64,000 nucleotides of DNA from Pseudomonadota bacterium (GTDB taxonomy: Bacteria > Myxococcota_A > UBA9160 > JADFDR01), in contig PIVT01000004.1 in NCBI GenBank assembly GCA_003353845.1, forward strand, positions 12,283 through 76,282, in the 5' to 3' direction. The position numbers were made by a program, and so were the translations under genes. Positions 4,820 through 21,310 of this stretch are shown in pieces. The notes under the pieces are model-generated. The model searched no databases. It was not told the origin of the DNA and saw nothing but the letters and a program-made list of their open reading frames with translations. Numbering within the stretch: the stretch's first letter is position 1; the number at the start of each line of letters is the position of its first letter.

Positions 4820-5236
4820 ATGAGCACACCCATCATGTTGTACGACGGCGACTGTGCCTTGTGTAATCGGGCAGTTCAATTCGTGATCGATCACGAACGT
4901 AGCGCGCAGATTTGTTTTGCTGCCTTGCAAAGCGATCTGGGAAGAAGCTACTTAAGGCGCTTTGGTCTCCCTGAAGAGGACTATGACACCTTTGTGTTGG
5001 TGCAAGGGGAGCAGGTGGCGACCCGCTTCGATGCCGTTTGCCGCGTGAATCAACTCATGGGTGGGCCTTGGAAAGTTCTTGCAGCTTGCTTGCGTTGGGT
5101 GCCCGAATCCTGGGGTGATGCCTTGTACGGTTTTGTCGTAAAAAACAGGCTCCGCTGGTTTGGGCGGGCTGAACATTGCCGTTTGCCGGATGAAGAAGCG
5201 GCTCATCGCTTCATCGGCCATTTCGACGAAAGTTGA
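4820..5236 (+). CDS. thiol-disulfide oxidoreductase DCC family (DUF393)
   Basis: N-terminal YDGDCALCNRAVQFV motif (DxxCxxC), typical of DCC-family proteins; size is about 138 aa. Confidence 0.75.
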   Translation: MSTPIMLYDGDCALCNRAVQFVIDHERSAQICFAALQSDLGRSYLRRFGLPEEDYDTFVLVQGEQVATRFDAVCRVNQLMGGPWKVLAACLRWVPESWGDALYGFVVKNRLRWFGRAEHCRLPDEEAAHRFIGHFDES

Positions 5237-5259
5237 GCCGGTCGAGCCGTCCTGCTTGG

Positions 5260-5997
5260 CTAGCGCGGAATCTGTCGGTGCAGCTCCTCGATTTGCTTGT
5301 CGAAAGTTGTTTGTTCGTCGCGCTCTAATTTGTCGGCTGGTTCTTCAGGTACGATTGACGGTGCGGGCAGGAAAGGCATGGGAGCAGCGACATCAATGCG
5401 CCTGAATCCATCGGGAATCGCAAACAGATTTTCAGATTGTTTTGCGATGACCACATTCGTTCGGTCAATTTGAAAGTCTGAGGTTTTCTCGTTTACGGTC
5501 ATGGTCCCCTGCATTCGAATGGGAATGTTCTCGGCTGAGAGCCAGAGGGTACCCGCCGATATCTGGCCCTCCGGATCGTTCAGGTAAATGCGGTACTTCG
5601 TGGTTTCCACGCCATTGACTTCTTCTTTACTGACGCGAGTCATGCGAACATCAGATCGATACCAGCCGCCAGCCGGATCATCTTTTCGCAAAGCATCGTG
5701 CCCATGCCAGCTTTCCATGTAGGCTTGCTGCGCGGGCAATAAGATTGCCGTTTTTTTTGAGAGGCGATCGGTGATGGAAACCGTCTCGCGTTGTCCGATT
5801 TGAATCTCGCGCCTTTCGTTGTCCTTTGCGGAGTACACCTTGCCGTGCATGGTGGTTGTGCCCTGTTGGCCCTTCAACGTCATGAGTACATTGGCAGAAT
5901 ATTCTTCCGTGGGTCGTGGAAATTCCTCAGCGTGGGCCTGGCTTGAGAGGAAGAGAGGGATCACGACAAGCGATAGTCGAAGTAGTGATTTGCTCAT
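5260..5997 (-). CDS. secreted hypothetical protein (possibly DUF4412/LolA-like beta fold)
   Basis: Clear signal peptide MSKSLLRLSLVVIPLFLSSQAHA/EE and GGAG RBS upstream. No catalytic motif recognised. Confidence 0.6.
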   Translation of the reverse strand: MSKSLLRLSLVVIPLFLSSQAHAEEFPRPTEEYSANVLMTLKGQQGTTTMHGKVYSAKDNERREIQIGQRETVSITDRLSKKTAILLPAQQAYMESWHGHDALRKDDPAGGWYRSDVRMTRVSKEEVNGVETTKYRIYLNDPEGQISAGTLWLSAENIPIRMQGTMTVNEKTSDFQIDRTNVVIAKQSENLFAIPDGFRRIDVAAPMPFLPAPSIVPEEPADKLERDEQTTFDKQIEELHRQIPR

Positions 5998-6773
5998 GGG
6001 TTTTCTCCTACGCGATCGATGAAAAGCCTCGCGCGGCTGCTTATGAGTTCGCTGTAGAACGTTCGCCGAGGATCACTGAAGATCTGGGGCAGGGGGCACA
6101 CAGCTTCGGAAACGATGTGGTCACGTCGACAGGTCTATAATCTGCCTCGAATGGGCTCCAGGTCAACGGGAAAGATGCCTCGGTCGGTCTTCTCGGGACG
6201 CTGATTGTGTGCAGGCCGACATCTTAACTAGTCGAAAACAAAAGTGAAAAATCCGTATGGCCTTAGGTCGGCGGTCTGTGCTTTCTTCCTGGAGCCAAGA
6301 CTATAGCAGCGAGAGTCCCCCCAACTTTTTTATCTCTTGGAATCAGGCACTTCCTTAACTCCTTACTGTGTATTGTCCGTTGACTTGCCGGTCAGTTGCA
6401 CAAGGGTCTTCCACCTTCTTTATCTTTGAGGTAAACTTGGGCTGATTTGGGGATGATGGGTGGTGTTGTAGTGGGGCTTCTCTTAACTATTCGTAACTTG
6501 CTAATCGTTGATAGAACAGTATGTTAGCGACTGGGGCTAGGGGGAAAGACCATCCGAATTCTTGCACGATCCGCGTGAATAACGTCGTAACGTTTTAAAG
6601 GCCACTGAACTCTCAGGCCATGGTCGGATCGTCACACCTCCATTGAGTTGAGGTGAGTAAAGCAAAAGCTGATTTTGCGATTGCGCAAAATTAGCAAGAC
6701 AAGTAGAGGCCGTTGATCTGTTAGAGAACTTTGAAAACGGCTGAGTAGGCTGGCAGAGCAAAAAAGATTACGT

Positions 6774-6802
6774 GTCAGGTTACAGGGTCAGGTTACAGGG
6801 TG
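6774..6802. repeat. 13-bp tandem direct repeat gtcaggttacagg, x2.2
   Basis: Read directly: copies at 6774-6786 and 6787-6799, followed by a partial copy. Lies about 140 bp upstream of the PEP-CTERM gene. Confidence 0.9.
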
Positions 6803-6939
6803 AACGTTGCGCGATAGTACGCGCGACAGCACGGGAAAAGTAGAAAGCTAAAAGCAGTCTGTCTGAAAGCAGTATCAACCGGCATCGAGCGTCAGGGCGC
6901 CTAAGCGGTAGGTTGCATAGATAGTTAGGGAGAACGGTG

Positions 6940-8367
6940 ATGAAAAAGTTTTTAGGACTCTTCGCGGGAGTCGCAATTTTATTGTGCTCATCTGTGGTGC
7001 AGGCCGAACCTCAGACCTATCGCGTCATGTCAGGTTCATCGATTGAAATGGATCTCGGTGGTGGCTTTCACGACGTGGACGTTAACTTTGTCGAGGGAGC
7101 CCTGCTTAGCGTCGACGTTACGACGGCGGGATCGCTGCCAGTCGTGCGGCGCATTGAAATAAACGAAATCATAATAGCTGAGTTTGGTATCACGAAACTC
7201 ATCCAGGACCCGTCGACAATCGCCACGGTCACCTTTGTCAATAACGTGGGCGGCTACCTTGCTCTCACAGGTTCGGGAGTGGGAGAACTGGATCCCAACA
7301 AGATCAATAAGATCAAGAAGGAAGGTTTCTACTACCAGTACAACGTACCTGGGCAGGGGTATACGCCAGGCGTTACGCGGCAACACCCGAGAGCTAGCCT
7401 TTACCAATCAGGTCCTACCTATTGGCTCCCCGCCCAAGATCATACTTATCCCAGTTCTCAGAGTGCTGAATTGCCACCAGGCGCCGCAATGATTAACGCG
7501 CAGGGTGGCTTCATGAAGATGGCAAACCGACCGGGTGAACAAGGTTTTGGTGGGCCCATGCAGCTGAAGGGTGGGGCCCTGGCTTTAGGCCTCACGATAA
7601 AGCTCGATATTTTCGGGCGGGACCAAACCCGGACCTCTGTTGGACAATTACATCAGCAAGCCATGAGCTGGGGCAATGGTACGGCCAAGGCCCGCTTCGG
7701 TGGCGACTACCGCAGTGTTTTTTACGGTGTGACCTTCTTGGGTCAAAAAACTGCACTCACCTATAGTTCTCGCTATCCCAATGGCAATACTTCCCTCCCC
7801 GGTTCGAAGAATGGAATCCCGCATTACGGGGAGAAATATACGTCATTGGGCGCGCTGAATACCAAGGCCACGCTTCCCACACATACTGGTTTCGGGCCCT
7901 ATTATTATGCAAACGGTTACAGTGCAGCCCCCACTTGGGCCAAGCCTGTGGCCTCGGGTGGAGCGAGTCGAACCACCATGGGTGGGAGCTTGGCGATCAA
8001 GAAGCTCGGGATTGTAAGTGAGTTTCGAAATCACTATACGAAGACGACTTCGACCCCCGGCACTTATCCTATTGAAAATCTAAACCTGACTTTCTCCGGT
8101 TTGACTACCCAGCACCAGACCCCCGACTTGGGGTTCTCGACCATCATCGCGACACAGACCACCTATTCAGCGAAGACGATTTTCCCAGAGGTGGTGACCA
8201 TTAGCCTGGTTTCTCCCGCAATTATGAATGTAGGAACGGGTATGGGTATCGTTGGCATTGTGAATCTCAACCTACAGCGCGTTCCCGAGCCCGGGCCGAT
8301 TATTCTCATGGCGGTCAGCGCTTTGTGCCTGGCGGGTGTTTCCGTGGCGCGAGGTCGTAAGAGCTAG
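6940..8367 (+). CDS. PEP-CTERM sorting-domain protein (putative exosortase substrate), otherwise uncharacterised
   Basis: Signal peptide KKFLGLFAGVAILLCSSVVQA/EP. C-terminus VPEPGPIILMAVSALCLAGVSVARGRKS gives a PEP motif, a TM helix and a basic cluster. GGGAG RBS at 6928-6932; GTG at 6937 is an alternative start. Confidence 0.75.
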   Translation: MKKFLGLFAGVAILLCSSVVQAEPQTYRVMSGSSIEMDLGGGFHDVDVNFVEGALLSVDVTTAGSLPVVRRIEINEIIIAEFGITKLIQDPSTIATVTFVNNVGGYLALTGSGVGELDPNKINKIKKEGFYYQYNVPGQGYTPGVTRQHPRASLYQSGPTYWLPAQDHTYPSSQSAELPPGAAMINAQGGFMKMANRPGEQGFGGPMQLKGGALALGLTIKLDIFGRDQTRTSVGQLHQQAMSWGNGTAKARFGGDYRSVFYGVTFLGQKTALTYSSRYPNGNTSLPGSKNGIPHYGEKYTSLGALNTKATLPTHTGFGPYYYANGYSAAPTWAKPVASGGASRTTMGGSLAIKKLGIVSEFRNHYTKTTSTPGTYPIENLNLTFSGLTTQHQTPDLGFSTIIATQTTYSAKTIFPEVVTISLVSPAIMNVGTGMGIVGIVNLNLQRVPEPGPIILMAVSALCLAGVSVARGRKS

Positions 8368-8422
8368 CGTAGTCCAGTTGGTTGTTGCGCTACACAGCAC
8401 AGGAAGAACACAGGAAAATGAA

Positions 8423-8456
8423 AGCGGCCACTCCTTTGGAGTGGCCGCTTTTGTTT
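8423..8456 (+). terminator. rho-independent terminator, plausibly bidirectional between convergent genes
   Basis: The 12-bp perfect stem agcggccactcc (8423-8434) pairs with ggagtggccgct (8438-8449) around a 3-nt loop, followed by ttttgttt. An A-run precedes it on the other strand. Confidence 0.7.
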
Positions 8457-8463
8457 CGGGCTT

Positions 8464-8489
8464 TTGTTTTGGCCTCTTGTTTTGGCCTC
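8464..8489. repeat. 13-bp tandem direct repeat ttgttttggcctc, x2
   Basis: Read directly: 8464-8476 and 8477-8489, between the terminator and the stop of the acyl-CoA synthetase gene. Confidence 0.9.
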
Positions 8490-8500
8490 TTCAAAAAACG

Positions 8501-10081
8501 CTAGACCTTTCGCCCTCGCTCTGCCCAGTAGGGGTCACGCAGGCTGCGGGTGGCCAACTTCCCGTTGGGTTGTCGTGGCAGGTGCTCGTGGAAGTCAATG
8601 CTGCGAGGGCGTTTGTACTTAGCCAGGTGCTGGGCGGCAAAGGAAAGAATCTCTGCACTGAGGGCCTCGGAACCCGTCATCCCGCTGACACATTCAACGG
8701 CGGCTTTGACCGACTCTCCCCATTCTTCATCGGGAACGCCAAACACACAGACATCGGCGATGGCTGGATGATTGATAAGAATGCGCTCGATCTCAGCGGG
8801 GTAAATATTGACCCCGCCCGAGATGATCATATTGGATTTGCGGTCGCATAAGTAGACGAAGCCGTCGTCATCCACGTGCCCGATGTCTCCCACGCTGAAG
8901 ACGTGGGGCTCGGAATGTGCCGTCTTGGTTTGGCTCGGGTTTTTGTGATAACGAAAGACTTGTTCGAGCTCGCGGTGTCGACAAAAGAGCTGCCCCTCGT
9001 GGTTGGCGGGCAAGCGCCTTCCTGCTTCGTCGCAGGCGTAGACTTCGTAATGGGGCAGGGCCTGGCCCACGGTTCCGGGATGGCTGAGCCACTGGGCGCT
9101 GTCGGCCAAGGTGTAAGTGCCGCCTTCCGTCGCTCCCCAATACTCAACGAAGACTGGACCCCAGCATTGAATCATTTTCTTTTTCACTTCGCGTGAGATG
9201 GGGGCTGCACCGTGCAAGACCCTTTCCAGGGAGGATGGTGCTGCATCGGGTTGGGTTTCCAAGGCCAGCAGGCGAACGAACATGGTGGGGACCATGTGGC
9301 TGTGGCGCACTTGCCGAGTGGTGATCAGTTCAAGACACTGCTCGGTGTTCCAACGGGGCATGATGATGAGGGAGGCGCCGTTGAGTAAATCCCACAAGGC
9401 GTAAGCCAGGGGGGCCGCGTGGTAGAGGGGGCCTGTGACCAGGTGCGGTCCCGCACCATCCAGTCCCAAGCCTTTTCCCGATTCACGGCAATGGCTCAAG
9501 GCGTCGCGCAGGGTGGGGGGAAGGCTGCGAATGACGCCTTTGGGCCGCCCACTGGTGCCGCTGGTGTAGAGCATGTTGCCGCCCGCGGGTTCCTCGGGCG
9601 CAAAGGGCTCGCTCGATGCCTCGGCCAGAAGGTCGTCGAGCTGCCGGCCGGCAAGAACACAGGGGATGGCCGCCGCCTTGGCTCCTTGGGGTTGATGTTC
9701 TTCATCGCTGAACAAGATCTTGGCGTCACAGTCCTTAAGGATGTATTGCACTTCTTCGGCGCTTAAGTGTGAGTTGATGGGTGTGAGCCAAATTCCCGAT
9801 AGCATGGCTCCCAAGCAAATTTCAATACACTCCACGCAGTTGCCCATGAGCAGAGCGGCATGCTCGCCGGGGGCCAGGCCGAGGGTGTCTCGGAAAACAT
9901 GAGCAAGGGCCCAGGAACGATTCTCGAGGGCCGCCCAAGATCGCTGTTGCCGCAGGTCGTCCACAGCCAGCTCTTGCTCGTGATTTTTTGCGAAGGGAAA
10001 TAGCATGGGGGAGTTCTTTTTGGCTCCGTAAGATGTCGGCGAGTTCCGGCGGAAAAGGATACTATACGGACCCTTCAGCAA
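8501..10081 (-). CDS. AMP-dependent acyl-CoA synthetase/ligase
   Basis: AMP-binding motifs YTSGTSGRPKGV, GATEGG, GDIGHVDDDGFVYLCDRKSNMIISGGVNIYPAEIE and the C-terminal PRQPNGK. The 10081 start is TTG; ATG at 10006 (MLFPFAK) is an alternative. Confidence 0.85.
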   Translation of the reverse strand: MLKGPYSILFRRNSPTSYGAKKNSPMLFPFAKNHEQELAVDDLRQQRSWAALENRSWALAHVFRDTLGLAPGEHAALLMGNCVECIEICLGAMLSGIWLTPINSHLSAEEVQYILKDCDAKILFSDEEHQPQGAKAAAIPCVLAGRQLDDLLAEASSEPFAPEEPAGGNMLYTSGTSGRPKGVIRSLPPTLRDALSHCRESGKGLGLDGAGPHLVTGPLYHAAPLAYALWDLLNGASLIIMPRWNTEQCLELITTRQVRHSHMVPTMFVRLLALETQPDAAPSSLERVLHGAAPISREVKKKMIQCWGPVFVEYWGATEGGTYTLADSAQWLSHPGTVGQALPHYEVYACDEAGRRLPANHEGQLFCRHRELEQVFRYHKNPSQTKTAHSEPHVFSVGDIGHVDDDGFVYLCDRKSNMIISGGVNIYPAEIERILINHPAIADVCVFGVPDEEWGESVKAAVECVSGMTGSEALSAEILSFAAQHLAKYKRPRSIDFHEHLPRQPNGKLATRSLRDPYWAERGRKV

Positions 10082-10160
10082 AGAGCCCTGTTTAGGGGCT
10101 TACAATGTAGCTGGAAGAAGACCCACTCAAAACTCCAAAATTCATCGTAAGGAAATCTCC

Positions 10161-11456
10161 ATGACCCCTCGAAATGTTGTTCTCGTAGACGGTGCCCGAT
10201 CCGCTTTTGCCCGAGGTGGGCGCGGTAAGTTGGTGGCCACTCGCCTCGATGATGCGGGTGCGACGGTGCTGCGCGCCTTGCTCGACCGCAATCCCCAAAT
10301 TAAACCTCACATGATTGAAGACATTGGTTTGGGCAATGTGGTTGGGGCCCAGGAGTTTACCTACCCCGGTGCTGTCCAACGCCTGGCGGGTCTGCCTTTT
10401 GAAACCGCGAGCTTCAACAGCAATCGCCAGTGCGGTTCTTCCATGGAGACGATGTTTCGTTTGGCCATGGCCATTCAGCTTGGTTACATCGACTGTGGAT
10501 TGACTTTGGGGATCGAACGTATGGGGCGCAATCTCTTCGCGGGCGCGGCTCCCAAAACACGCATCACCAAGACCAACCGGAAAGTCCAGGAAATGAGCGA
10601 GGTGCAAATCGCGCCAGCGCCCGATCATGCAGAGTACTTTTCGCGCGAGTTCCCCGAGTACATTCGCCTGTCACCTCCCTTTCAAGGCATGGCGCAGACG
10701 GCACAGAATGTGGCCGAGGTGTATGAGCTTTTGCGAGAAGAGATCGACGCGTACGCCTTGGAGAGTCATAAGAAGTGTGATGCGGCCTACGAGGCCGGCG
10801 TGTACAAGGATGAAGTGATTCCCTTGGAGGTGGAGACGCCGGTCTTTGATGACGAGGGCAATTGGGTCGAAAAAGAGCATGGCGAGGTCGTCACTTTTGA
10901 TCGCGATGAATGCATCCGTGTGTCAACGCCTGAAAAGTTGGCAGCGCTGCCAGGCCTCAAGGGTGTGAAGAGCTTTGCGGATAAAGAGGTCGTCATCTCC
11001 GCAGGCAATTGCTGCCCCACCAACGATGGGATTACGGCTGCCATTGTCATGTCCGAAGAGAAGGCCTTGGCGCTGGGCTTGGAGCCACTGGCCCGCATTC
11101 GCGCCATGGCCGTGGGCGGTGTGAAACCTCAAATGATGGGCGTGGGTCCTGTGGTGTCGACCAAGAAGGCATTGAAGCAAGCGGGCCTGACGGCGGACCA
11201 GATCGATCGAGTGGAGTTCAACGAGGCTTTTGCCGCCCAGGTGATTCCCTCTTGTCGTGAGATCGGATTGGATTTGTCCAAGGTGAATGTGAACGGGGGC
11301 TCCTTGGCCATTGGTCATCCCTTGGGCGCAACAGGCGCGCGCTTGGTGACCACCGTCGCCATGGAGCTTCGCCGCAGCGGCGGACGCTTCGGGTTGGCCA
11401 CGCAATGCATCGGCGTGGGTCAGGGCGTGACCACGATTCTTGAGCGCATCGATTGA
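10161..11456 (+). CDS. thiolase family acetyl-CoA C-acyltransferase (431 aa, long-insert type)
   Basis: Nucleophile motif NRQCGSS and C-terminal catalytic motifs NVNGGSLAIGHPLGATGARL and CIGVGQG. Divergent from the acyl-CoA synthetase. Confidence 0.9.
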   Translation: MTPRNVVLVDGARSAFARGGRGKLVATRLDDAGATVLRALLDRNPQIKPHMIEDIGLGNVVGAQEFTYPGAVQRLAGLPFETASFNSNRQCGSSMETMFRLAMAIQLGYIDCGLTLGIERMGRNLFAGAAPKTRITKTNRKVQEMSEVQIAPAPDHAEYFSREFPEYIRLSPPFQGMAQTAQNVAEVYELLREEIDAYALESHKKCDAAYEAGVYKDEVIPLEVETPVFDDEGNWVEKEHGEVVTFDRDECIRVSTPEKLAALPGLKGVKSFADKEVVISAGNCCPTNDGITAAIVMSEEKALALGLEPLARIRAMAVGGVKPQMMGVGPVVSTKKALKQAGLTADQIDRVEFNEAFAAQVIPSCREIGLDLSKVNVNGGSLAIGHPLGATGARLVTTVAMELRRSGGRFGLATQCIGVGQGVTTILERID

Positions 11457-12198: not shown

Positions 12199-13068
12199 CT
12201 AGCCTTGCAGCACTTTGAGAGGAGTGGTTTTTCGCAAAGAAGATGCGGGCGCGCTGTCGAATTCCTCTTCCGCAATGCTCAATCCCTTGAAGTCGAAGAG
12301 CTTGTGGTCGGCCAGGTGAGAGGGGACGGTGTTTTGCAAGGCTCGGAAGATATTCTCGCTGCGGCCGGGGAACTGCTCATCCCAGTCGCGCAGCATTTGC
12401 TTCATGGCCTGGCGCTGCAAGTTCTCTTGGGATCCACATAGGTTGCAGGGGATGATGGGGAAAGCGCGATCTTCAGCATAGCGCGCCACGTCCTTTTCCT
12501 TGCAATAGGCCAGGGGCCGAATCAGCATGAACTGCCCATCGTCACTTTTTAATTTTGGTGCCATGGCCTTCAGGGTTCCGCCAAAGAACATATTGAGGAA
12601 CAAGGTTTCGATGATGTCTTCGCGATGGTGCCCCAGCGCGATTTTCGTAGCACCGATTTCGCGGGCAAAGTTATAGAGATTGCCGCGGCGCAGACGAGAA
12701 CAGAGTGAGCACATGGTTTGCCCCTCGCCGATGTGTTTCTTGACGAGGGAGTACGTGTCCTTTTCTAGGATGTGATATTCGATCCCCAGCGTTTCCAAGT
12801 AGGCGGGCAACACCTCTTCGGGGTAGTCGGGCTGCTTTTGGTCCAGATTCACCCCGATGATTTCGCAGTCGAGATCCCCCGTTTCCTTGAGCGAGAGCAG
12901 GAGGTCCAGCAGGCTATAGGAGTCTTTTCCTCCCGACAGGCAGACCATGATGCGATCGCCGGGCACGAGCATCTCAAAATCATCGATGGCCCGGGCGGTG
13001 AGACGGCGCAGCTTCTTTCGCCGCTTGTTTATTTCGTAGCTTTGTTTTCGCGGGTCCGCGCTGCTCAT
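12199..13068 (-). CDS. ttcA: tRNA 2-thiocytidine(32) synthetase TtcA
   Basis: PP-loop VCLSGGKDS and the Fe-S cysteines [10 protein letters not shown] and CNLCGSQ. The N-terminus [20 protein letters not shown] aligns with the E. coli TtcA N-terminus. I chose ATG 13068 (GAGGGAA RBS) over the 428-aa ORF-track start. Confidence 0.85.
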
Positions 13069-13266
13069 AAAAGTTCCCTCTGGATGGCCGGAGCGCAATA
13101 TAGCGGTTTTCCAGAGAAAATCGCCCATGTCGCAGGGCTCGTCTCGGGCTGTCTCTGTATTTAGTTTTCGGGCATGGACCCTCCCATAGGGGTCGCTGAA
13201 GCGAGAATGGGAGGGTGGGAAATGGGTTGCGGTGCGGCGTTGCGCCACAGCCGAAAGCCTTTCGCT

Positions 13267-13295
13267 AGAGGTACAATCAACAGAGGTACAATCAA
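13267..13295. repeat. 15-bp-period tandem direct repeat agaggtacaatcaa, x2
   Basis: Read directly: 13267-13280 and 13282-13295, in the divergent ttcA / WS-DGAT intergenic region. Confidence 0.9.
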
Positions 13296-13369
13296 TCCAA
13301 ACAAAACTGTGGACCTCTTCCTGCCCTTTGTTAGAACATGGGACAGGGCAAGCATGGAGAAGAACAGGG

Positions 13370-14788
13370 ATGCAAACAATATCTGGGGCAGATGCTTCTT
13401 TTCTCCTCGAAGAGACCCCAGAGATGCACATGCATACCCTGAAGTTGTCGGTGGTCGATCCCTCGACGGCGGCCAACCCCATCACCTTTGAGCTGTTTCA
13501 GGAGTTGGCCATGCGCCAGCTTCCACTGTTTACTCCCTTCCGGAGAAGGCCTCTCGATGCCCCGTACTCCTTGGGACCTCCTGTCTGGGTCGAAGATCGT
13601 GATCTGGATGTCAACTACCACATTCAGCGCATCGTACTTCCCAACGGGGGCGGTGATCACGAACTCGATGAAGTGATGAGTGAGGTGGGGAGTACCCCCT
13701 TGCGTCGAGACCACCCACTCTGGCAGTTCTACTACATCGAAGGCTTGGACCATGGCTACATCGCTTATCTACTGAAACTTCATCACGCGGTTGCAGATGG
13801 TTCGGTGAGCACGGCCTTGATGAGTTTGTCGTTTCACACCAGCCCCGAAGGAGCCACGAATCCTCCCACGGTGGAGGAGTTGGTGAAATTGGTTAAACCC
13901 GATACAGCCGTTGCTCCAGATACGTTTGTACGGTTTGTGTTGCGTGCCTCCAATAAAATTATCAGGCGCTCCCCTAATTTGTTTGCTCGTTCGGCTCGAT
14001 CCATCACCAAAGACGTTTCTCAAATCATCCGCAGGAAAAAAAGACCCATCAATGCTTTTGTGGGACCGGCCACGCGCTTTAACCGGCCCGTGAGCGCAGA
14101 TCGTATTTTCTCCCACGTCACACTTTCTTTGAGCGACCTCATTACAGTCAAGAACGCCTTTGGTTGTACGGTGAATGATGTATATCTTGCGCTGGTTGGC
14201 GGGGCGCTACGCAGATATCTCGATAGTCATCGAGAACTGCCCAAGCGTTCGATTTCGGCCGTGGTGCCGGTTTCCATTCGCTCTGATTCCGACGAAGCCC
14301 TCTTTGGAAATGCGGTGGCTCAGTGGTTTGCAACAACGGGAAGTGGCATCGTCGACCCTGGCGAACGCTTGCGCGCTGTCAGCGATAGCACGCGTATTTC
14401 GCGCCAGGCCTTTGAGGGGAAAGACCGACATCTGACCAAGGATTGGTATGACCTCTGGCCGCTGCGCCGGCTCTACATCTTTGCATTGCCTTCGATGGTG
14501 ACTTCAATCATCAAACGTCCCGCGTATAATATCATTGTGTCCAATGTCTCAGGGCCGCGTGTCCCTTTGTACAGTGATGGTGCTCGCGTCGTGTCCGTGC
14601 GCTCCATCGGTCCGCTCGCACGGCAGCAGGGTTTGAATTTTACCGCGTGGAGTTATCTCGATGCTTTTAGTATCACAATGCATGCCTGCCGGAGAGAAGC
14701 CGGCGACCTGCGTTGCCTGGCCGACGCTTTTCCTCCCGAGGTGAAGGAGCTGTTAGAGGCGGCACGGCGCGAGTCGCAGCGGGATTGA
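13370..14788 (+). CDS. wax ester synthase/diacylglycerol acyltransferase (WS/DGAT) family, paralogue 1
   Basis: Active-site motif HHAVADG (HHxxxDG), N-terminus [15 protein letters not shown] typical of the family, and the C-terminal [10 protein letters not shown] motif. Start moved to ATG 13370. Confidence 0.85.
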
Positions 14789-14806
14789 ATTCTTTGAGAA
14801 GTTTCC

Positions 14807-15964
14807 ATGACAGCTCTTGAGATAAACGGTCAGGTAGCGCCCGGGTTTGAAGCGGTCCGGGAAGCCTTTCAGGCGAATTTTGTGCAGCATGGAGAAGTGG
14901 GTGCGGCTTTTGCGTTGTATCTCGACGGTGAACTCATTGTTGATTGTTGGGGAGGTTGTGCGGATCCCGTAAGTGAGCGTCCATGGCAGCGAGATTCCTT
15001 GCAACTTATTTTTTCCGCAACCAAGGCAGCCACCGTTGCCTGCTTGCTCCGTCTGGTGGAGCGTGGTGAAATTGATCTCGATGCAGCGGTGGCAAGTTAT
15101 TGGCCGGAATTCGCAGCTGAGGGTAAGGGGGAGATCCCTGTCCGTTGGTTGCTGTGTCACCGTGCGGGAATTCCCGTTATCGATGCCAGCCTGAGCTTGG
15201 AAGAGGTTTACGCTTGGGATCCGGTGATCAAGGCCCTGGAAAAACAGGTCCCGGTATGGGAACCGGGAACGGCCCATGGCTACCATGCGCGTACCTTTGG
15301 ATGGCTTGTTGGAGAATTGGTGCGCCGGGTGAGTGGGCGGAGTATCGGTCGATTCTTTGCAGAGGAAATTGCCGAGCCCTTGGGATTGAGTTTCTTTATC
15401 GGATTGCCAGAGTCCATGGAATCGCGTTGTACACGTGTGTTATCTCCCGTGACAGACCCTGAGGCCGGTGATGGAAAGTCCCTTTTGGAAATTTTTGGTC
15501 CAGATACGCTGTTGCACCGTGTCTTGACCGGTCCTTCGGGTTTGTTTGGCTACGATGACATGTGGAACAGTCGCCCCTTGCACGCTGCCGAGATTCCATC
15601 CTCCAACGGAATTTGCGATGCGCGATCTCTGGCCCGTTTTTACGCGGCCATGATCGGATCCATCGATGGTCAGCGAATACTTTCTCCCGAAACCGTGGAG
15701 GCTGCGCGAGTCCTCCAGGTGGAGGGTCGCGATAAAGTTGTTTTCATGCACAGCTGTTTCGGGCTTGGATTCATGCTGCCCCCGATCTTGAACCCGGCGC
15801 TCCCGAAGGGCTGCTTTGGTCACCCCGGTGCAGGAGGTTCTTTGGGCTTTGCCCATCCTGAACGAGGCCTGGCCTTTGGCTATGTTATGAACCAGATGCA
15901 CATGGGTCTGTCAGGGGATGCGCGCAGTACGGCTTTGGTGAAGGCCGTCTATTCTTGTTTGTAG
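14807..15964 (+). CDS. serine hydrolase, class-C beta-lactamase fold (EstB/LovD-like esterase family)
   Basis: SxxK motif FSATKAAT, a Tyr-containing second motif region, and HPGAGGSLGF near the C-terminus. Starts 18 bp after WS/DGAT-1. Confidence 0.85.
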   Translation: MTALEINGQVAPGFEAVREAFQANFVQHGEVGAAFALYLDGELIVDCWGGCADPVSERPWQRDSLQLIFSATKAATVACLLRLVERGEIDLDAAVASYWPEFAAEGKGEIPVRWLLCHRAGIPVIDASLSLEEVYAWDPVIKALEKQVPVWEPGTAHGYHARTFGWLVGELVRRVSGRSIGRFFAEEIAEPLGLSFFIGLPESMESRCTRVLSPVTDPEAGDGKSLLEIFGPDTLLHRVLTGPSGLFGYDDMWNSRPLHAAEIPSSNGICDARSLARFYAAMIGSIDGQRILSPETVEAARVLQVEGRDKVVFMHSCFGLGFMLPPILNPALPKGCFGHPGAGGSLGFAHPERGLAFGYVMNQMHMGLSGDARSTALVKAVYSCL

Positions 15965-15985
15965 TGCTCTTGTTTGTAGCCCGTC

Positions 15986-16834
15986 TTATTTGTGCTTCGC
16001 GACGAACTCCGCAACTTTTTGAGTCCAGTCTGAAGTTTCATTCATCTTGGAAACAACGTGCAGTTCGCTGTTGGGAATCAGTTCCACCAGCTCTTCTGCC
16101 GTAGAGACAGGATGTCCGGGATCACCTGTCCATGCAAGAATCAGTGTGGGCTGTTCCAACTTGGAGAGCAGTGAGGGATCGGGCAGGTCAGATTCACCCA
16201 GGCCACGGAAGGCGGCGACGCCGGAGCGACGATCCTGATCGTGGGCGTGGCGAACCATGGAATGGACCAGGTGACCGGCAGGTGAATCGTACCCACCAGG
16301 CAGGGAGAGTGAACCGACAAACTGGAGTGGGAAAAAACCGATGAGGCGCACGGCTTGTGCGGCATAGCGATAAAGTTTCGCCTGGCGTGGGCGCGTGTCC
16401 CAGGCCGTGGGAGGCGCCATGAGCACGAGCGCTTTTACGCGTTCGGGTGAGTGCACGGCGGTGTGAAGGGCGACGGCACAGCCCATGGAGACTCCGCCGG
16501 CCACAAACTCATCGATATCAAGTGCATCGGTGAGCCCCAATAAATCTTCGGTGAGGGCGGAAAAGTGAAAATCTATCGGGTCGTGGCAATGTTGAGACTC
16601 GCCATGCCCACGTGCGTCGTAGCGAACGACACGCGTTTGCTGCGTTAGCTCTTTCCAGCGCAGAAGATTGGCATCATCGTCTTGTCCCATATCGCCCAAA
16701 AGGCAGTGCCCCCACAAAAGAGGACACGGATCTTCGGGGCCTTCTTCGCGCACGGCTAATTCTGCGCCACGCACGTAGACCCAACGCTGGTTGGGATGAG
16801 TTGCGTCGCCCGCCTTATTGCCGCGCATCTGCAC
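15986..16834 (-). CDS. alpha/beta hydrolase
   Basis: Nucleophile elbow GVSMGCAVAL (GxSxG), an HG-type oxyanion region (LLWGHCLLGD) and a C-terminal His region. Overlaps the upstream gene by 20 nt. Confidence 0.8.
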   Translation of the reverse strand: MQMRGNKAGDATHPNQRWVYVRGAELAVREEGPEDPCPLLWGHCLLGDMGQDDDANLLRWKELTQQTRVVRYDARGHGESQHCHDPIDFHFSALTEDLLGLTDALDIDEFVAGGVSMGCAVALHTAVHSPERVKALVLMAPPTAWDTRPRQAKLYRYAAQAVRLIGFFPLQFVGSLSLPGGYDSPAGHLVHSMVRHAHDQDRRSGVAAFRGLGESDLPDPSLLSKLEQPTLILAWTGDPGHPVSTAEELVELIPNSELHVVSKMNETSDWTQKVAEFVAKHK

Positions 16835-18005
16835 ACTTTACCGCTGCGGCACCCATACGCAGAATGCGGGTGTCGAGCATGGCAGAACCCGAGTTGACAA
16901 TGAGCGCAACTGCAAGCTCTCGGCTGGGGTCCGCCCAGGCGCCCGATCCACCAAAGCCAAAGTGCCCGAAGGCTTCGGGCAAGAGCTGATTGATTGTGCC
17001 GATGCGGTGATAACCCAGCCGCCAATTTAGATCGAAGGGGTTCCGGCTACGGGATTTGGGAGGGTGTTGGATTTCACTGAGTTGACGGAAGGTCTTGGGC
17101 GAAATCATCCGCACACCATCCACGCTGCCGCCACCCGCCAGCATGGCGTACATGCGCGCGAGGGAGCGCGCAGTAAACAACCCATTAATAGAGGGGAGCG
17201 TAGCGCTTAGCACTTCTTCCGAGGAGAAATCGATGGAGCTGATACCGTGGGGCATGAGGTCCAATGCGGACGCGAATTCAAGTTCGCTACCAGCGAGGTC
17301 GAGGATCTTTTGGAGAAGAGCAACGGGTTTTCGAAGGACCTGGCCGAATTCAAGGCCTTTGCGTTTGGCGCCTTCGGGGCCGATGAGCTGTGCGGCTTGT
17401 TCGATTTCATGTTTAGGGGCTCCAATATAGAAACCCTCCAGTCCGAGAGGAATGGCCAGTTCGCCTTCGACAACTTCGCGGAAGGGCTTTTGTGTGACGC
17501 GCTGAATGATTTCACCAACAAGGTAGCCATAGGTGAGACCGTGGTATCCAATGCGCGCGCCGGGTTCGTGAATGGGTTCGCAATTTTCAATGGCCTCGAT
17601 CATGTGGTCCCAGTCGATCATGCGGTCGGCATGGTCAATCATCTGGCGCACATGGTAGAGCCCGGATTGATGGCAGAGCACCTGTCGAACCGTGATACGT
17701 TCTTTGCCCAGTTGGCCGAACTCAGGCCAGTAGTGGCAAACTGGCCGGTCGTATTTGATAAGCCCCTTGTCGGCCAATATGTGCAAGACGGTAGAGGCCA
17801 CGCCCTTGGTTGTTGAAAAACTTGGTGCCGCTGTTGTCGCTTCCCAGGGTGCACCTTCGCCACATTTGTACCCACCCCAGATGTCAACCACGCGTTCGCC
17901 GCGATGAAAGACGGCAACGGCTGCACCACCACGGCTGTTGGCCAATTGACGCCGCAGGGCGACACCAACCTCACTGAACTCGGGATGTAAATGACCGTCG
18001 ATCAT
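16815..18005 (-). CDS. serine hydrolase, class-C beta-lactamase fold (EstB-like), paralogue of 14807-15964
   Basis: SxxK motif FSTTKGVAS and C-terminal HFGFGGSGAWADP. Aligns by eye along its whole length with the 14807-15964 product. Confidence 0.85.
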   Translation of the reverse strand: MIDGHLHPEFSEVGVALRRQLANSRGGAAVAVFHRGERVVDIWGGYKCGEGAPWEATTAAPSFSTTKGVASTVLHILADKGLIKYDRPVCHYWPEFGQLGKERITVRQVLCHQSGLYHVRQMIDHADRMIDWDHMIEAIENCEPIHEPGARIGYHGLTYGYLVGEIIQRVTQKPFREVVEGELAIPLGLEGFYIGAPKHEIEQAAQLIGPEGAKRKGLEFGQVLRKPVALLQKILDLAGSELEFASALDLMPHGISSIDFSSEEVLSATLPSINGLFTARSLARMYAMLAGGGSVDGVRMISPKTFRQLSEIQHPPKSRSRNPFDLNWRLGYHRIGTINQLLPEAFGHFGFGGSGAWADPSRELAVALIVNSGSAMLDTRILRMGAAAVKCADARQ

Positions 18006-18034
18006 TCTTGTTCTCCTGGTGGCATTGAGAAAAT

Positions 18035-19441
18035 TCAGCCTTCGATGGCGCGTTTAAGTTCCTCTACGCCATTCTCAATACCCTCTGTCAAGAGCCACGG
18101 CTCGGGCACGAGGTTTGGATCTAGCATGAATCCAAAATTTATATCCTTTACGTAACTCATAATCGTAATGCTCAATCCCATTCCGACGAGAACCGGGGCC
18201 AGGGGGAAGACGGCTTCGACTTTCCCACCGCAGATGTAGAGCGGGAAAGGAGGTCCCGGGACGTTGGAAATGATGGTGTTGGCTTGTAGCGGAATTTTCC
18301 CTTCGAGCTTGGCAGAGTTCAGAATCCATCCGGCCAGCTCAATGGCTACTGGCGGAAGAGCGGTGCCCATGGCCTGGACATCGGTTGCTCCCAGGTCCCC
18401 CGCAATCTCTTTGGCGGCCAGGGATCGCCTGTTGATTTCCTTGAGCCGTTTCACGGGGTCTTTGAGATGGGTTTCCAAGGAAACGGAAAGCGTCCCGACT
18501 TGATTGTCGAGGTTCTTGTCCCCCTCGGCGCGCGTCGAAATGGGCACGCCAGCGATGAGAGTCTCTTCGGGTAGTGCATTCTGCGCTTGGAGGTAGCTGC
18601 GCAGGGCCGAACCACAGACGGCCAAAAGAACATCATTTACTTTGACGTCGAAATGTTTTTTGATGGCTTTCACATCGTCCAATGAAACGCTGGCAAAGGT
18701 GATGCCACGGCGCGAAGTGAGGGGGTTATTGAAAATGGTGCGCGGAGCCTCGCCAGCAAGCAAATCACGGTGCTTGCGCTTGTGGGGAATCATGGCCATG
18801 CTGCGCCAGCTCATCTTGGCCATCCATCCGGTGACGCGATAAGGCATTCCCATAAGGGATACGAGCCCTTGCTGGAACAACTCCATGTCACTGGGCTCTG
18901 GCTCTTGGGAGCCACGAGAGGAACGCTTGCGCTTTGCATTCTTCTCTTCTGGTTCTTCTGGGGGATTGGGTTCGAAGTCCGCCAATATCTCTCCCAACCC
19001 TACACCCGAAAGGCCGTCAAACATGCAGTGATGGGTCTTCAACAAGATGGCTGCACGTTGTTCAGCGAGGCCTTCGATGTACCAGATTTCCCACAAGGGT
19101 CTGCTGCGGTCGAGTTGACGGCTGAACAGTTGGGAGCTGAGTTCTGCTAACTCGTCCTCGCCCCCAGGTGCGGGCACAGACACCCGATGCACGTGATCCT
19201 CAACTCGAACGCCTTTGTTTTCAACCCAATAGGGCCTGTCCAAACCGAGGGGAACATGGCGTACCGTCCAGGAGAGTTTGGGCACGCGACCAATCCTCTC
19301 CGTCAGGGTACGCAGGAGCTTCTCAAAGCTGAAATCTTCTGCCTGGGAAGGGTCGATGACGGCAATGGCCCCTGTTGTCAGGGCCGAATTGGGCGTCTCG
19401 ATGGATAGGAAAATAGAATCATCACCTGCCAGTTGCTTCAT
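18035..19441 (-). CDS. wax ester synthase/diacylglycerol acyltransferase (WS/DGAT) family, paralogue 2
   Basis: HHCMFDG active-site motif and NVPGPPFPLY motif. Contains a charged insert, PEEPEEKNAKRKRSSRGSQEPEP. Confidence 0.85.
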   Translation of the reverse strand: MKQLAGDDSIFLSIETPNSALTTGAIAVIDPSQAEDFSFEKLLRTLTERIGRVPKLSWTVRHVPLGLDRPYWVENKGVRVEDHVHRVSVPAPGGEDELAELSSQLFSRQLDRSRPLWEIWYIEGLAEQRAAILLKTHHCMFDGLSGVGLGEILADFEPNPPEEPEEKNAKRKRSSRGSQEPEPSDMELFQQGLVSLMGMPYRVTGWMAKMSWRSMAMIPHKRKHRDLLAGEAPRTIFNNPLTSRRGITFASVSLDDVKAIKKHFDVKVNDVLLAVCGSALRSYLQAQNALPEETLIAGVPISTRAEGDKNLDNQVGTLSVSLETHLKDPVKRLKEINRRSLAAKEIAGDLGATDVQAMGTALPPVAIELAGWILNSAKLEGKIPLQANTIISNVPGPPFPLYICGGKVEAVFPLAPVLVGMGLSITIMSYVKDINFGFMLDPNLVPEPWLLTEGIENGVEELKRAIEG

Positions 19442-19693: not shown

Positions 19694-21310
19694 GTGGAAT
19701 TTCAACTAGCAGATCTTTTTGAATCTATGGCTGATCGGGTTCCTGATCGCGAGGCTATGGTTGCGGGTGACCGAAGGCTCACCTATGCCCAACTCGATGT
19801 GCGAGCCAATCAGTTGGCTCATCAGTTGAGTGCGTTGGGTGTTGGTGCTGGCGATCATGTGGGAATACAACTTCACAACGGCACCGAATACATCGAAGGC
19901 ATGTTGGCCGCTTTCAAGCTTCGTGCAGTGCCCATTAATGTGAACTATCGCTACATGGAAGAAGAGCTTCGCTACTTGTTTGACGATGCCGACCTGGTTG
20001 CGCTGATCTTGCACAAGAGTTTCCTCCCGCACGTGGTGCCGATCGCCTCATCACTGCCCAAGCTGAAGAACTATATCGTTGTCGATGAACCCTGTGAGGT
20101 GGTGGGGACTCTTCCCAGTGCATTGGATTATGAGACTTGCCTGGCAGCTTCCAGCGATAAGCGGATTGGGACCCCGCGATCATCGGAAGACCTCTACATC
20201 GTGTACACCGGTGGAACGACAGGAATGCCAAAGGGCGTCATGTGGTACCACGAGGATATCTTCTTCGCCGCCATGGGTGGTGGCGATGTGATGAAAACGG
20301 GTAACCCCGTAACGAAACCTGAACAGTTGGCAGAGCGTGTTCCCGAGAACACCCTGGGCGCATTGCCGGTACCTCCTTTTATGCACGCCGCGGCACAGTG
20401 GCTGGCCTTCACGACTTTATTTAGCGGTGGCAAGATTGTAGTTCCCGAAGGCGGAGGGTTTGATCCAGCAGAAATCTGGGACCTCGTCGCGCGGGAGAAA
20501 CTCTTGATGTTGGTGATCGTGGGTGACGCCATGGCTACCCCACTGGCCGACACTTTGGAAGCCAACCCCGATCGTTTCGATCTCAGCTCATTGATTGTGA
20601 TTGCGTCAGGTGGTGCGCTCTTCTCGCCTTCGACCAAAGAACGACTGCGTACCTTGCTTCCCAATCGCATCATCATGGACGGCTTGGGCTCTTCAGAAAC
20701 GGGGGTCATGGGCAATAAGTCGAGCATGCCAGGTGTAGACTTGGATGAAGAGCCGCTTTTTATGGTGAATGAAGAAACCGCGGTATTGGATGAGGATTTA
20801 AACCCCATCATTCCCGGGTCGGGAGAGATCGGTCATCTGGCGCGGAAGGGTCGTGTCCCCATTGGCTATTACAACGATACGGAGAAGTCTCGCAATACCT
20901 TCTTGACGGTGAATGGAGAGCGATGGGCGGTTCCGGGAGATATGGCGACGGTCGAAGCCAATGGAACGGTACGACTTCTGGGCCGAGAAAAGTTCAGCAT
21001 CAATACCGGAGGCGAGAAAGTCTTTCCGGAGGAAGTGGAGGCTGTGATCAAGAGCCATCCGGAGGTCTTTGATGTCCTGGTTGTCGGTCTTCCCGATGAT
21101 CGCTGGGGGGAAAAGATTGTAGCGGTGGTGCAGACACGCTCGGGTGCGGATATAACCCTCGAGCAATTGCGTGAATTCTGCTCGACTCGCATCTCGAATT
21201 TCAAAGAACCAAGGGGAGTGGTTCGAGCCGATACGATTCGCCGCTCACCAACGGGGAAGGCAGACTATGGGTGGGCGAAGGAGCGCGCGCTTCAGGGGTT
21301 GGGCGCCTGA
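19694..21310 (+). CDS. AMP-dependent acyl-CoA synthetase
   Basis: Motifs YTGGTTGMPKGV, SSETG, PGDMATVEANGTVRLLGREKFSINTGGEKVFPEEVE and the C-terminal SPTGKADY. GTG start follows a GAGG RBS. Confidence 0.85.
   Translation: MEFQLADLFESMADRVPDREAMVAGDRRLTYAQLDVRANQLAHQLSALGVGAGDHVGIQLHNGTEYIEGMLAAFKLRAVPINVNYRYMEEELRYLFDDADLVALILHKSFLPHVVPIASSLPKLKNYIVVDEPCEVVGTLPSALDYETCLAASSDKRIGTPRSSEDLYIVYTGGTTGMPKGVMWYHEDIFFAAMGGGDVMKTGNPVTKPEQLAERVPENTLGALPVPPFMHAAAQWLAFTTLFSGGKIVVPEGGGFDPAEIWDLVAREKLLMLVIVGDAMATPLADTLEANPDRFDLSSLIVIASGGALFSPSTKERLRTLLPNRIIMDGLGSSETGVMGNKSSMPGVDLDEEPLFMVNEETAVLDEDLNPIIPGSGEIGHLARKGRVPIGYYNDTEKSRNTFLTVNGERWAVPGDMATVEANGTVRLLGREKFSINTGGEKVFPEEVEAVIKSHPEVFDVLVVGLPDDRWGEKIVAVVQTRSGADITLEQLREFCSTRISNFKEPRGVVRADTIRRSPTGKADYGWAKERALQGLGA

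Follow-up and report, generated by a model that had tools for sequence, protein, structure and literature searches.

Family VIII carboxylesterase genes recurrently linked to WS/DGAT acyltransferase genes: candidate enzymes for the breakdown of stored fat

Here and in distant bacteria, genes for family VIII carboxylesterases (H) show a strong but not fixed link to genes for WS/DGAT acyltransferases (W). Because this adjacency is far above chance, the paired esterases are candidates for the breakdown of stored fat. We consider it about an even chance (probability ~0.5) that W and H form a make-and-break gene pair, which would produce and degrade neutral lipid much as phaC-phaZ does with PHA. To our knowledge, the mobilisation of stored wax esters and triacylglycerol is poorly known in bacteria other than actinomycetes; the synthases are well studied, but most intracellular hydrolases are unassigned. 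Our literature search found no paper describing a WS/DGAT-esterase pairing, in line with the earlier note on this DNA, which had regarded it as not a standard described operon.

Gene content of the locus

The window, by which we mean the whole stretch of 64,000 nucleotides analysed here, contains two such pairs in convergent orientation. On the forward strand, the WS/DGAT acyltransferase gene W1 (13370-14788; 472 aa) is followed after a gap of only 18 bp by the family VIII carboxylesterase gene H1 (14807-15964; 385 aa). On the reverse strand, W2 (18035-19441; WS/DGAT acyltransferase, 468 aa) is followed by H2 (16815-18005; family VIII carboxylesterase, 396 aa), and the 29-bp gap between them holds a ribosome-binding site, AGGAGA. 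Behind H2, on the same strand, lies a gene for an alpha/beta-fold hydrolase of ~280 aa (15986-16834; PF00561 and PF12697). Its start codon is probably the ATG at 16828, which gives an overlap of 14 nt with the end of H2. All five genes, as the earlier note had described them, were found at these coordinates, and the catalytic motifs of W and H are intact. Divergent from W2 is an acyl-CoA synthetase gene (19694-21310, forward strand; 538 aa), which scored 709 bits on the NCBIfam model PRK07798 (cutoff 543) and had FadD5 and FadD13 as best PDB matches. It probably counts as an associated gene. The window is rich in lipid genes, including several acyl-CoA dehydrogenase, SDR and thiolase genes.

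W1 and W2 matched PF03007 (E-values of 4e-56 and 9e-64, respectively) and PF06974 (2e-15 and 1e-28), and their scores of 368 and 427 bits on TIGR02946 both exceed the cutoff of 310. The catalytic motif HHxxxDG, likewise noted before as intact, reads HHAVADG in W1 and HHCMFDG in W2; in a further WS/DGAT, P0007, it reads HHCMIDG. By this motif, the two domains and TIGR02946, W1 and W2 are WS/DGAT proteins, with acyl-CoA-dependent esterification as their predicted activity. The closest structures to both were 7NXG and 6CHJ (E ~1e-49).

Family VIII assignment of the esterases

Both hydrolases matched PF00144 (E-values of 5.5e-68 for H1 and 2.2e-59 for H2) and carry the SxxK motif, as S-A-T-K in H1 and as S-T-T-K (S64-T-T-K67) in H2. 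H2 also has Y154 and H348-F-G350, and the residues S64, K67, Y154, H348 and G350 are invariant in 29 homologues. The top PDB matches by phmmer were 5GMX, 5GKV, 8J5V, 7Y3Z and 3ZYT; for H1, the closest solved structures were 8J5V, 5GMX, 7Y3Z and 5GKV (E-values from 1e-70 to 1e-78). The AlphaFold model of H2 (pLDDT 83.6) gave 7Y3Z, 5GMX, 8J5V and 5GKV as best Foldseek matches (E-values from 1e-24 to 1e-26, TM 0.74-0.84), with the macrolactin acyltransferase 6KJH and EstCE1 (7ATL) also among the matches. By sequence and predicted fold, the hydrolases are family VIII carboxylesterases of the EstA/LipBL/mycobacterial LipE-L type, for which ester hydrolysis is predicted. Assignment as LipL or LipE equivalogs (orthologues) was rejected, with NCBIfam scores of 219-255 bits on the LipL model and 107-143 bits on the LipE model, far below the respective cutoffs of 650 and 750. 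Short or medium acyl chains are preferred by the majority of family VIII esterases characterised to date, which speaks against a role in the hydrolysis of storage lipid.

The PF00144 match, the SxxK motif and weak scores on the NCBIfam class C, AmpH and PBP4B models could also fit penicillin-binding or beta-lactamase enzymes that act on peptidoglycan or beta-lactams. However, where class C enzymes have YxN and KTG, these proteins have Y-H-G and H-F-G; scores on the class C model (bla_class_C), whose cutoff is 415 bits, reached only 25-38 bits; and every one of the best structural matches is a family VIII carboxylesterase. Moreover, inspection by eye of the N-termini (MTALEINGQ, MIDGHLHPE and MNATSKAVQE) revealed no hydrophobic h-region, and hence no visible signal peptide. 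A class C beta-lactamase or DD-peptidase was therefore rejected, and action on peptidoglycan or beta-lactams is extremely unlikely. The lack of visible signal peptides and the advice not to read these genes as antibiotic-resistance genes, both put forward in the earlier note, agree with our results.

H2 and another esterase, P0006, share an extra segment of ~40 residues (roughly 205-260), which was modelled with low confidence. Proteins of the esterase clade with the most frequent linkage to W have C-terminal tails, which are often polybasic (16 of 35). A polybasic tail is also present on five of the seven WS/DGATs of this genome, W1 and W2 being the two without. The similar tails on this esterase clade and on the five synthases hint at a shared localisation.

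Linkage in other genomes

The linkage was quantified for 120 esterase loci in 150 related genomes, all from the GTDB order to which the genome studied here belongs. A WS/DGAT gene was located within 500 bp of the esterase gene at 13 of the 120 loci, compared to 0.7 expected (Poisson p ~1e-10 to 1e-12), and within 7 kb at 17 loci, compared to 2.2 expected; these expectations assume uniform placement of WS/DGAT genes, whose counts per genome were taken among the best 15 candidates and may be lower bounds, and the relatedness of the genomes makes their loci only partly independent observations. Immediate adjacency of W and H was 18-fold enriched. By comparison, acyl-CoA synthetase genes, which served as a control, were observed ~17 times against ~11 expected, an enrichment of ~1.5-fold at most. 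The linked loci are spread over 17 genomes from ~14 genera.

The genome studied here encodes seven WS/DGATs and five PF00144 proteins, and all three PF00144 genes of the family VIII type lie directly downstream of a WS/DGAT gene. The third pair is found on another contig (C165), in the order MMPL-W-H and with a 1-nt start/stop overlap. If we assume ~4,500 genes, which is our own rough estimate, the chance of three such pairings out of three is ~(7/4500)^3.

In 103 of the 120 loci (86%) there was no WS/DGAT nearby, and a linked synthase is hence not a requirement for the esterase. The share of linked esterase loci was ~11-14% in the order and ~31% in the closest clade, and the order and orientation of W and H varied among loci. 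Conservation of the pairing outside this genome, on which the earlier note had made its case depend, is thus borne out, whereas its description as a fixed pairing is too strong.

Orthologues of H2 (94, 83, 69 and 68% identity) each lie behind a WS/DGAT gene. In one locus (L256), W and H overlap by 4 nt and the W partner is just 31% identical to W2. The alpha/beta hydrolase gene behind H2 is kept only in two near relatives, L257 (76% identity) and L258 (89%), which also keep the position of the acyl-CoA synthetase gene divergent from W2. An acyl-CoA synthetase gene adjoins the pair in the window, in these two relatives, and in the loci L006, L015 and L025. L015 and L025, both from Acidimicrobiia, have an ACS-W-SDR-H operon headed by an acyl-CoA synthetase homologue with 55% identity; in the loci of Acidimicrobiia and Microthrixaceae, H is linked to W at 1-2.5 kb. 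Further neighbours of the pairs likewise encode lipid enzymes, namely acyl-CoA synthetase, acyl-CoA dehydrogenase, SDR and an Acr1-like reductase, and in L006 a TonB-dependent receptor gene lies upstream of W-H. The MMPL neighbour of the pair on C165 was conserved in no other locus compared.

Origin of the two pairs

The earlier note had interpreted the two pairs as duplicated modules with strongly diverged paralogues. The divergence is evident from the identities of ~29% between W1 and W2 and 33% between H1 and H2. The duplication is contradicted by several results. No inverted repeat between the two modules was found at the DNA level, the tree of the synthases and that of the esterases are incongruent with many-to-many partners, and L257 has an orthologue of W1 (74% identity) without H1 behind it. 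W1 and W2 belong to different deep WS/DGAT lineages. Furthermore, H2 and P0006 are 57% identical while their W partners share just 30%, and a single shared duplication of a W-H module was therefore rejected. The closest paralogues of the synthase P0007 are unpaired W genes (45-65% identity). The incongruent trees and many-to-many partners point to repeated recruitment rather than inherited synteny, and each of the two modules arose by a juxtaposition of its own, in which a different WS/DGAT lineage came to lie beside a different esterase clade.

The first pair, W1-H1, may be a recent or even incidental juxtaposition, since in other genomes just 1 of 19 loci with an H1-type esterase shows a pairing (at 1.3 kb and on the opposite strand) and H1 is lacking in a near relative. 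An orthologue of H1 with 86% identity is present in L258, while L257 has none at that position.

Possible function of the gene pair

In a make-and-break pair, W would transfer the acyl group of acyl-CoA to a fatty alcohol or diacylglycerol, yielding wax ester or triacylglycerol. H, a presumably cytoplasmic enzyme encoded directly behind W, would hydrolyse such esters at its Ser-x-x-Lys/Tyr site, so that the storage lipid could be turned over or mobilised. Re-activation of the fatty acid freed by H would then fall to the acyl-CoA synthetase encoded nearby. The substrate of the esterase, the direction of its reaction and its physical association with the synthase are what we infer here. Two characterised relatives of H act on acylglycerols: LipE of M. 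tuberculosis hydrolyses trioctanoin and requires the Ser and Lys of SxxK (PMC6921666), and LipBL of Marinobacter lipolyticus is an intracellular family VIII enzyme that hydrolyses olive and fish oil (PMC3154438).

More tentatively, one clade of family VIII esterases, presumed to be cytoplasmic, could be the dedicated partner of WS/DGAT on bacterial lipid droplets. This clade would then represent the intracellular lipase for wax esters and triacylglycerol in Gram-negative bacteria, and in some actinobacteria, that accumulate neutral lipid. Such an esterase would have been recruited repeatedly beside different synthase lineages. Possibly, the inserted helical segment and the polybasic tails hold it on the droplet, and a complex of esterase and synthase is conceivable.

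An alternative explanation is the salvage or remodelling of esters, in which H, and in the second pair also the alpha/beta hydrolase, would cleave wax esters, steryl esters or acylglycerols from the environment; the acyl-CoA synthetase would activate the acid and W would re-esterify it, building up the storage lipid of the cell itself. This explanation would be in keeping with the conserved acyl-CoA synthetase genes beside the pair, the TonB-dependent receptor gene in L006, and the window's genes for acyl-CoA dehydrogenases, SDRs and thiolases. Yet, no export signal is visible on the esterases and wax or steryl esters would hardly reach the cytoplasm intact, the paired loci of other genomes contain no steroid genes, and the acyl-CoA synthetase is, by its PDB matches, of a generic fatty-acyl type. 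We therefore consider salvage unlikely. H might instead work as a transesterase or acyltransferase, like LovD, EstCE1 or BmmI, that builds or remodels a specialised ester lipid with or after W; in the third pair this lipid might leave via the adjacent MMPL transporter. Family VIII and related enzymes are also able to transfer acyl groups, and two such beta-lactamase-fold enzymes, EstCE1 (7ATL) and the macrolactin acyltransferase BmmI (6KJH), are among the Foldseek matches. An acyl-transfer role would also be consistent with the tight translational coupling (the 1-nt and 4-nt overlaps, and the ribosome-binding site in the 29-bp gap) and with the MMPL-W-H order on C165, which appears to resemble the MmpL-PapA-Chp lipid-export loci of mycobacteria. 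However, the nearest sequence and fold matches (5GMX, 5GKV, 7Y3Z and 8J5V) are hydrolases rather than acyltransferases, LovD was not among the PDB sequence matches of the esterases at E<1e-10, no ACP, PKS or NRPS gene was found within ~10 kb on either side of the locus, and the MMPL neighbour is not kept elsewhere. An acyl-transfer relay is hence quite unlikely.

Finally, W and H might not be directly coupled at all, their adjacency reflecting the general clustering and shuffling of lipid genes, with H as a general esterase for an unrelated (e.g., xenobiotic) substrate. The many unlinked loci, the variable gene order and orientation, the patchy occurrence of H1 (in the window and L258, missing from L257) and the lipid-rich window are all compatible with this explanation, as is the frequent promiscuity of family VIII enzymes, among them the herbicide ester hydrolase 7Y3Z. 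In contrast, the 18-fold enrichment of immediate adjacency far exceeds that of acyl-CoA synthetase, all three family VIII-type esterases of this genome are paired, juxtaposition with different WS/DGAT lineages has occurred repeatedly and across phyla, and some W-H junctions are translationally coupled. Mere clustering therefore appears improbable, and a make-and-break pair remains our preferred explanation.

Implications

Family VIII esterases have so far mostly been treated as promiscuous biocatalysts. The recurrent link across phyla gives them a plausible physiological role and offers a concrete, easily tested candidate enzyme family for the mobilisation of neutral lipids. If the proposed function is correct, the production of wax esters and triacylglycerol could be engineered by removing the turnover enzyme, and lipid-storage potential could be read from metagenomes. 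Annotation would gain as well, since the usual label for such genes is 'beta-lactamase' or 'serine hydrolase'.

Comparison with known systems

W1 and W2 have the two-domain architecture and HHxxxDG motif in common with AtfA of Acinetobacter baylyi (7NXG) and Ma-WS/DGAT of Marinobacter (6CHJ), although the identity is just ~25-30%. Similarly, H shares the beta-lactamase fold with CcEstA (5GKV), 5GMX, EstZF172 (8J5V), FEH (7Y3Z), EstA (3ZYT) and LipBL. Known family VIII esterases and H have the Ser-x-x-Lys nucleophile, the Tyr and H/W-x-G in common; the known enzymes are cytoplasmic without a signal peptide, and H, on which inspection shows none, is presumably cytoplasmic too. Unlike for H, a genetic link to WS/DGAT has been reported for none of these named esterases. 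H2 and P0006 further differ from them by the extra segment, and the clade of P0006 by its C-terminal, often polybasic tails. Among the M. tuberculosis proteins LipL (Rv1497), LipE (Rv3775), LipD and LipP, the LipL and LipE models are the best NCBIfam matches of H. In the H37Rv annotation, these lip genes are not known to be adjacent to tgs genes.

In Pseudomonas, the PHA synthase genes of phaC1-phaZ-phaC2 are directly linked to the gene of the depolymerising hydrolase. Going by the locus numbering, mycobacterial tgs genes presumably lie beside lip genes of the alpha/beta fold at Rv0220-0221, Rv1425-1426c and Rv2284-2285. As proposed for W-H, both systems link the synthase of an intracellular store to a degrading hydrolase; in the window, two synthases flank three hydrolases. 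The window differs from them in its convergent orientation. The hydrolase of W-H has the family VIII/beta-lactamase fold, whereas those of phaC-phaZ and tgs-lip are alpha/beta hydrolases, and the proposed store of W-H would be neutral lipid instead of the PHA of phaC-phaZ.

Gene content of the two operons

The five genes between positions 13370 and 19441 were present and arranged as the earlier note had described them. On the plus strand, the WS/DGAT W1 (13370-14788, 472 aa, motif HHAVADG) is followed after 18 bp by the PF00144 esterase H1 (14807-15964, 385 aa, motif S-A-T-K). On the minus strand, the WS/DGAT W2 (18035-19441, 468 aa, motif HHCMFDG) is followed after 29 bp by the PF00144 esterase H2 (16815-18005, 396 aa, motif S-T-T-K), and the gap between them contains an AGGAGA ribosome-binding site. 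Downstream of H2 lies an alpha/beta-fold hydrolase gene (ABH, 15986-16834, minus strand), whose probable ATG at 16828 gives a 14-nt overlap with the end of H2. Only 21 bp separate the ends of these two convergent operons. W1 and W2 each matched both WS/DGAT Pfam domains and scored 368 and 427 bits, respectively, with TIGR02946 (cutoff 310). Identity is 29% between W1 and W2 and 33% between H1 and H2.

The neighbouring ttcA ORF (12199-13485, minus strand) encodes 428 aa when read from its first start codon. The TtcA profile matches residues 143-408 only, and the true start therefore probably lies much further downstream, which would leave a divergent spacer of ~300 bp to W1. TtcA is closest to Halieaceae/Cellvibrionales sequences (66-70%).

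Identity of the hydrolases

Sequence, and for H2 also structure prediction, identify both hydrolases as family VIII esterases that are probably cytoplasmic. The warning of the earlier note that they are not antibiotic-resistance genes was borne out, and a role as beta-lactamase or PBP is effectively excluded. With class C beta-lactamase models, the hydrolases reached only 25-38 bits, compared to a cutoff of 415. Their best NCBIfam models were the mycobacterial esterases LipL and LipE, at scores far under the equivalog cutoffs. The closest solved structures by sequence were the family VIII carboxylesterases 5GMX, 5GKV (Caulobacter EstA), 8J5V, 7Y3Z and 3ZYT. These entries were also the top Foldseek matches (E 1e-24 to 1e-26) of the AlphaFold model of H2 (mean pLDDT 83.6, pTM 0.86), followed by further family VIII esterases, two acyltransferases of the same fold and EstB, with class C enzymes far down the ranking. 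Residues S64, K67, Y154, H348 and G350 were invariant in 29 of 29 homologues, so that Y-H-G and H-F-G take the place of the YxN and KTG found in class C enzymes. In agreement with the earlier note, no signal sequence was visible at the N-termini.

H2 shares an inserted segment (residues ~205-260, window ~17230-17390) with P0006, the esterase of a third pair in the same genome, and this segment is not found in H1. It is predicted as a low-confidence helix (pLDDT 46-65) and could be a lid or surface-binding element.

The C-termini also carry additions. Esterases of the clade most linked to WS/DGATs have C-terminal extensions with a median of 26 aa, and 16 of 35 such extensions have a net charge of at least +5. 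At its C-terminus, P0006 has three copies of the repeat ASSADQEVRRV together with a basic tail, and its partner synthase P0007 has a Lys-rich tail. Polybasic C-terminal tails of 26-99 aa occur on five of the seven WS/DGATs of the genome carrying the window (window 59781-61304, C85:81183-81989, C382:56420-57229, C728:69486-70298 and one on C165). The similarity of the tails on esterases and WS/DGATs hints at a shared localisation.

Strength and spread of the link

The genome carrying the window has seven WS/DGAT and five PF00144 genes. The third pair lies on contig C165 (C165:58000-75000, 4594-10395), where the gene of an 828-aa MMPL/RND-type transporter is directly followed by P0007 (551 aa) and then by P0006 (492 aa); the P0007 stop codon and the P0006 start share 1 nt. 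Identity between P0006 and H2 is 57%. The remaining two PF00144 genes show 25-35% identity in partial alignments and belong to other subfamilies, and hence all three esterases of this type stand directly behind a WS/DGAT. The MMPL transporter was rejected as a conserved partner, as it had only two weak matches (26-28% identity), several kb away in unrelated arrangements. Four WS/DGAT genes of this genome lie on one 98-kb contig (C85).

The sample covered the GTDB order of this genome (151 genomes, 12 families), with WS/DGATs in 142 genomes and the esterase subfamily in 133. The best-scoring 120 esterase loci of other genomes, with 7-kb flanks, were scanned by tblastn. A WS/DGAT was found within the locus in 17 of 120 cases, versus 2.2 expected from genome size and per-genome WS/DGAT counts under uniform placement (Poisson p ~2e-10); the counts come from the best 15 candidates scored in each genome and may be 'at least' values. 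Within 500 bp, 13 of 120 loci had a WS/DGAT, versus 0.7 expected on the same basis (p ~1e-12). Hence, the pairing extends beyond the genome in which it was noticed. As a rough control, homologues of the acyl-CoA synthetase (ACS) occurred in ~17 of ~172 loci versus ~11 expected, based on the 21 such genes of the genome carrying the window.

The earlier note had called the pairing fixed. It is not: of the 120 loci from elsewhere in the order only the 17 are linked, and their arrangements vary (H then W, W then H, divergent and convergent). The 17 loci stem from 17 genomes of ~14 genera. Most linked loci belong to the P0006/H2-like clade, where 11 of 36 are linked; a clade at ~50% identity shows only a weak link (5 of 65), and H1-type esterases show almost none (1 of 19). 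An esterase beside a tandem WS/DGAT pair recurs at six loci (L063, L066, L072, L085, L089, L132) in five or six genera and four families; the tandem WS/DGATs come from two sister clades. Related genomes are not independent, yet partners and arrangements are so varied that the pairing probably arose many times.

Repeated assembly rather than duplication

The earlier note interpreted the two operons as mirror-image duplicated modules. Our results contradict this interpretation. The synthase and esterase trees are incongruent, and the operons share no DNA-level inverted repeat other than 24 nt within a conserved motif; module duplication was rejected on these grounds. The esterase tree places H2 and P0006 together in a clade of 45 sequences with good support, and H1 in a distant one. 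The synthase partners of the H2/P0006 clade are spread over at least six deep lineages. W1, W2 and P0007 are mutually ~29-30% identical, against 57% for H2 and P0006, and the closest paralogues of P0007 are unpaired WS/DGATs (65, 57 and 45% identity).

Close relatives were found through identical-protein look-ups. In L258 (H2 orthologue 94%), the arrangement is the same, H1 included. In L257 (H2 orthologue 83%), the synthetase gene stands divergently beside W2-H2-ABH, and this operon converges directly on a W1 orthologue (74%), without an intervening H1. In L256 (H2 orthologue 68%), the order is SDR-W-H with a 4-nt overlap, and the synthase is only 31% identical to W2; in L001 (H2 orthologue 69%), it is 53% identical. 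These arrangements and partner identities indicate that pairs were assembled repeatedly and are not copies of one module.

The W1 orthologue of L257 (5228-6661) ends 14 bp from the ABH stop, with no H1 gene, versus 13370-15986 in the window; an entire H1 gene was thus cleanly gained or lost between relatives at ~74-83% protein identity. L257 has a GT4 glycosyltransferase gene upstream of W1, in place of ttcA. The conserved unit is W2-H2-ABH with its divergent synthetase, and H1 may have been added recently. ABH was rejected as a gene that generally accompanies the pair, since it was found in no loci but those of the near relatives L257 and L258. In L049, a different alpha/beta hydrolase lies behind the WS/DGAT.

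Neighbours and occurrence outside the order

An esterase search of species genomes found a WS/DGAT adjoining the esterase in MAGs labelled Halieaceae or Halioglobus, and 1-2.5 kb away in Acidimicrobiia and Microthrixaceae. Two Acidimicrobiia MAGs (L015, L025; 2016-7248) carry an operon ACS-W-SDR-H. Its synthetase is 55% identical to the ACS beside W2 (19694-21310, plus strand), which is exceptionally high for a comparison between phyla and could reflect horizontal transfer of a lipid module. A steroid role of the ACS beside W2 was not supported, as its matches were generic fatty-acyl-CoA ligases only.

Taxonomic labels are in conflict. The closest homologues of the window genes come from MAGs whose labels are Spongiibacteraceae, Halioglobus or Halieaceae, a contig resembling Halioglobus carries the label Bacteroidia (L003), and NCBI labels two genomes from the same GTDB order as the window Myxococcota (identical loci L008=L141, G112; L028=L137, G075).

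The remaining neighbours encode lipid enzymes (acyl-CoA dehydrogenase, SDRs and an Acr1-like NAD_binding_4 reductase) and, in a single case, a TonB-dependent receptor. Automatic clustering of neighbouring ORFs suffered from spurious ORFs of great length on the antisense strand of high-GC loci; it gave no widely recurring family besides synthase and esterase, with the synthetase in a few loci. At L123 of the same order (8242-9159), a 305-aa NAD-dependent epimerase/NAD_binding_4 ('male sterility') protein follows the pair; this is the domain type of the fatty acyl-CoA reductases that supply wax-ester alcohol.

Proposed function

We infer the function of the pair throughout from sequence and analogy. 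The best-supported reading, with a probability of about one half, is that the two enzymes make and break neutral lipid. The WS/DGAT would make wax esters or triacylglycerol from acyl-CoA, the esterase would cleave them by hydrolysis, and the adjacent synthetase would reactivate the released acid. Marinobacter is a genus of wax-ester accumulators. Its intracellular family VIII enzyme LipBL hydrolyses olive oil and fish oil (PMC3154438), and LipE hydrolyses trioctanoin, for which its SxxK serine and lysine are required (PMC6921666). The activities of these two relatives point to an acylglycerol-type substrate.

Alternatively, the pair might salvage imported esters, including steryl esters, although we consider this unlikely. 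It seems similarly doubtful that lipid genes merely cluster here without direct coupling of synthase and esterase. Acyltransferases with the fold of H2 do exist (6KJH and 7ATL, both matched by its model), and the esterase might accordingly act in a transesterification relay; we regard this as the least probable of these alternatives.

Both families and the idea of synthase-hydrolase pairs are already known. As the earlier note supposed, the literature searched contained no description of a WS/DGAT recurrently paired with a family VIII or beta-lactamase-fold esterase. The one paper on WS/DGAT neighbourhoods reports Kennedy-pathway genes, alpha/beta hydrolases and lipases; genes of the beta-lactamase fold are not among them (PMC10351704). 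The pairing offers a testable starting point for assigning the intracellular hydrolases that act on wax esters and triacylglycerol in non-actinomycete bacteria. To judge by locus numbers, strain H37Rv has several tgs genes that adjoin alpha/beta-fold lip genes. Co-encoding of synthase and hydrolase is common for storage compounds, as in phaC1-phaZ-phaC2.
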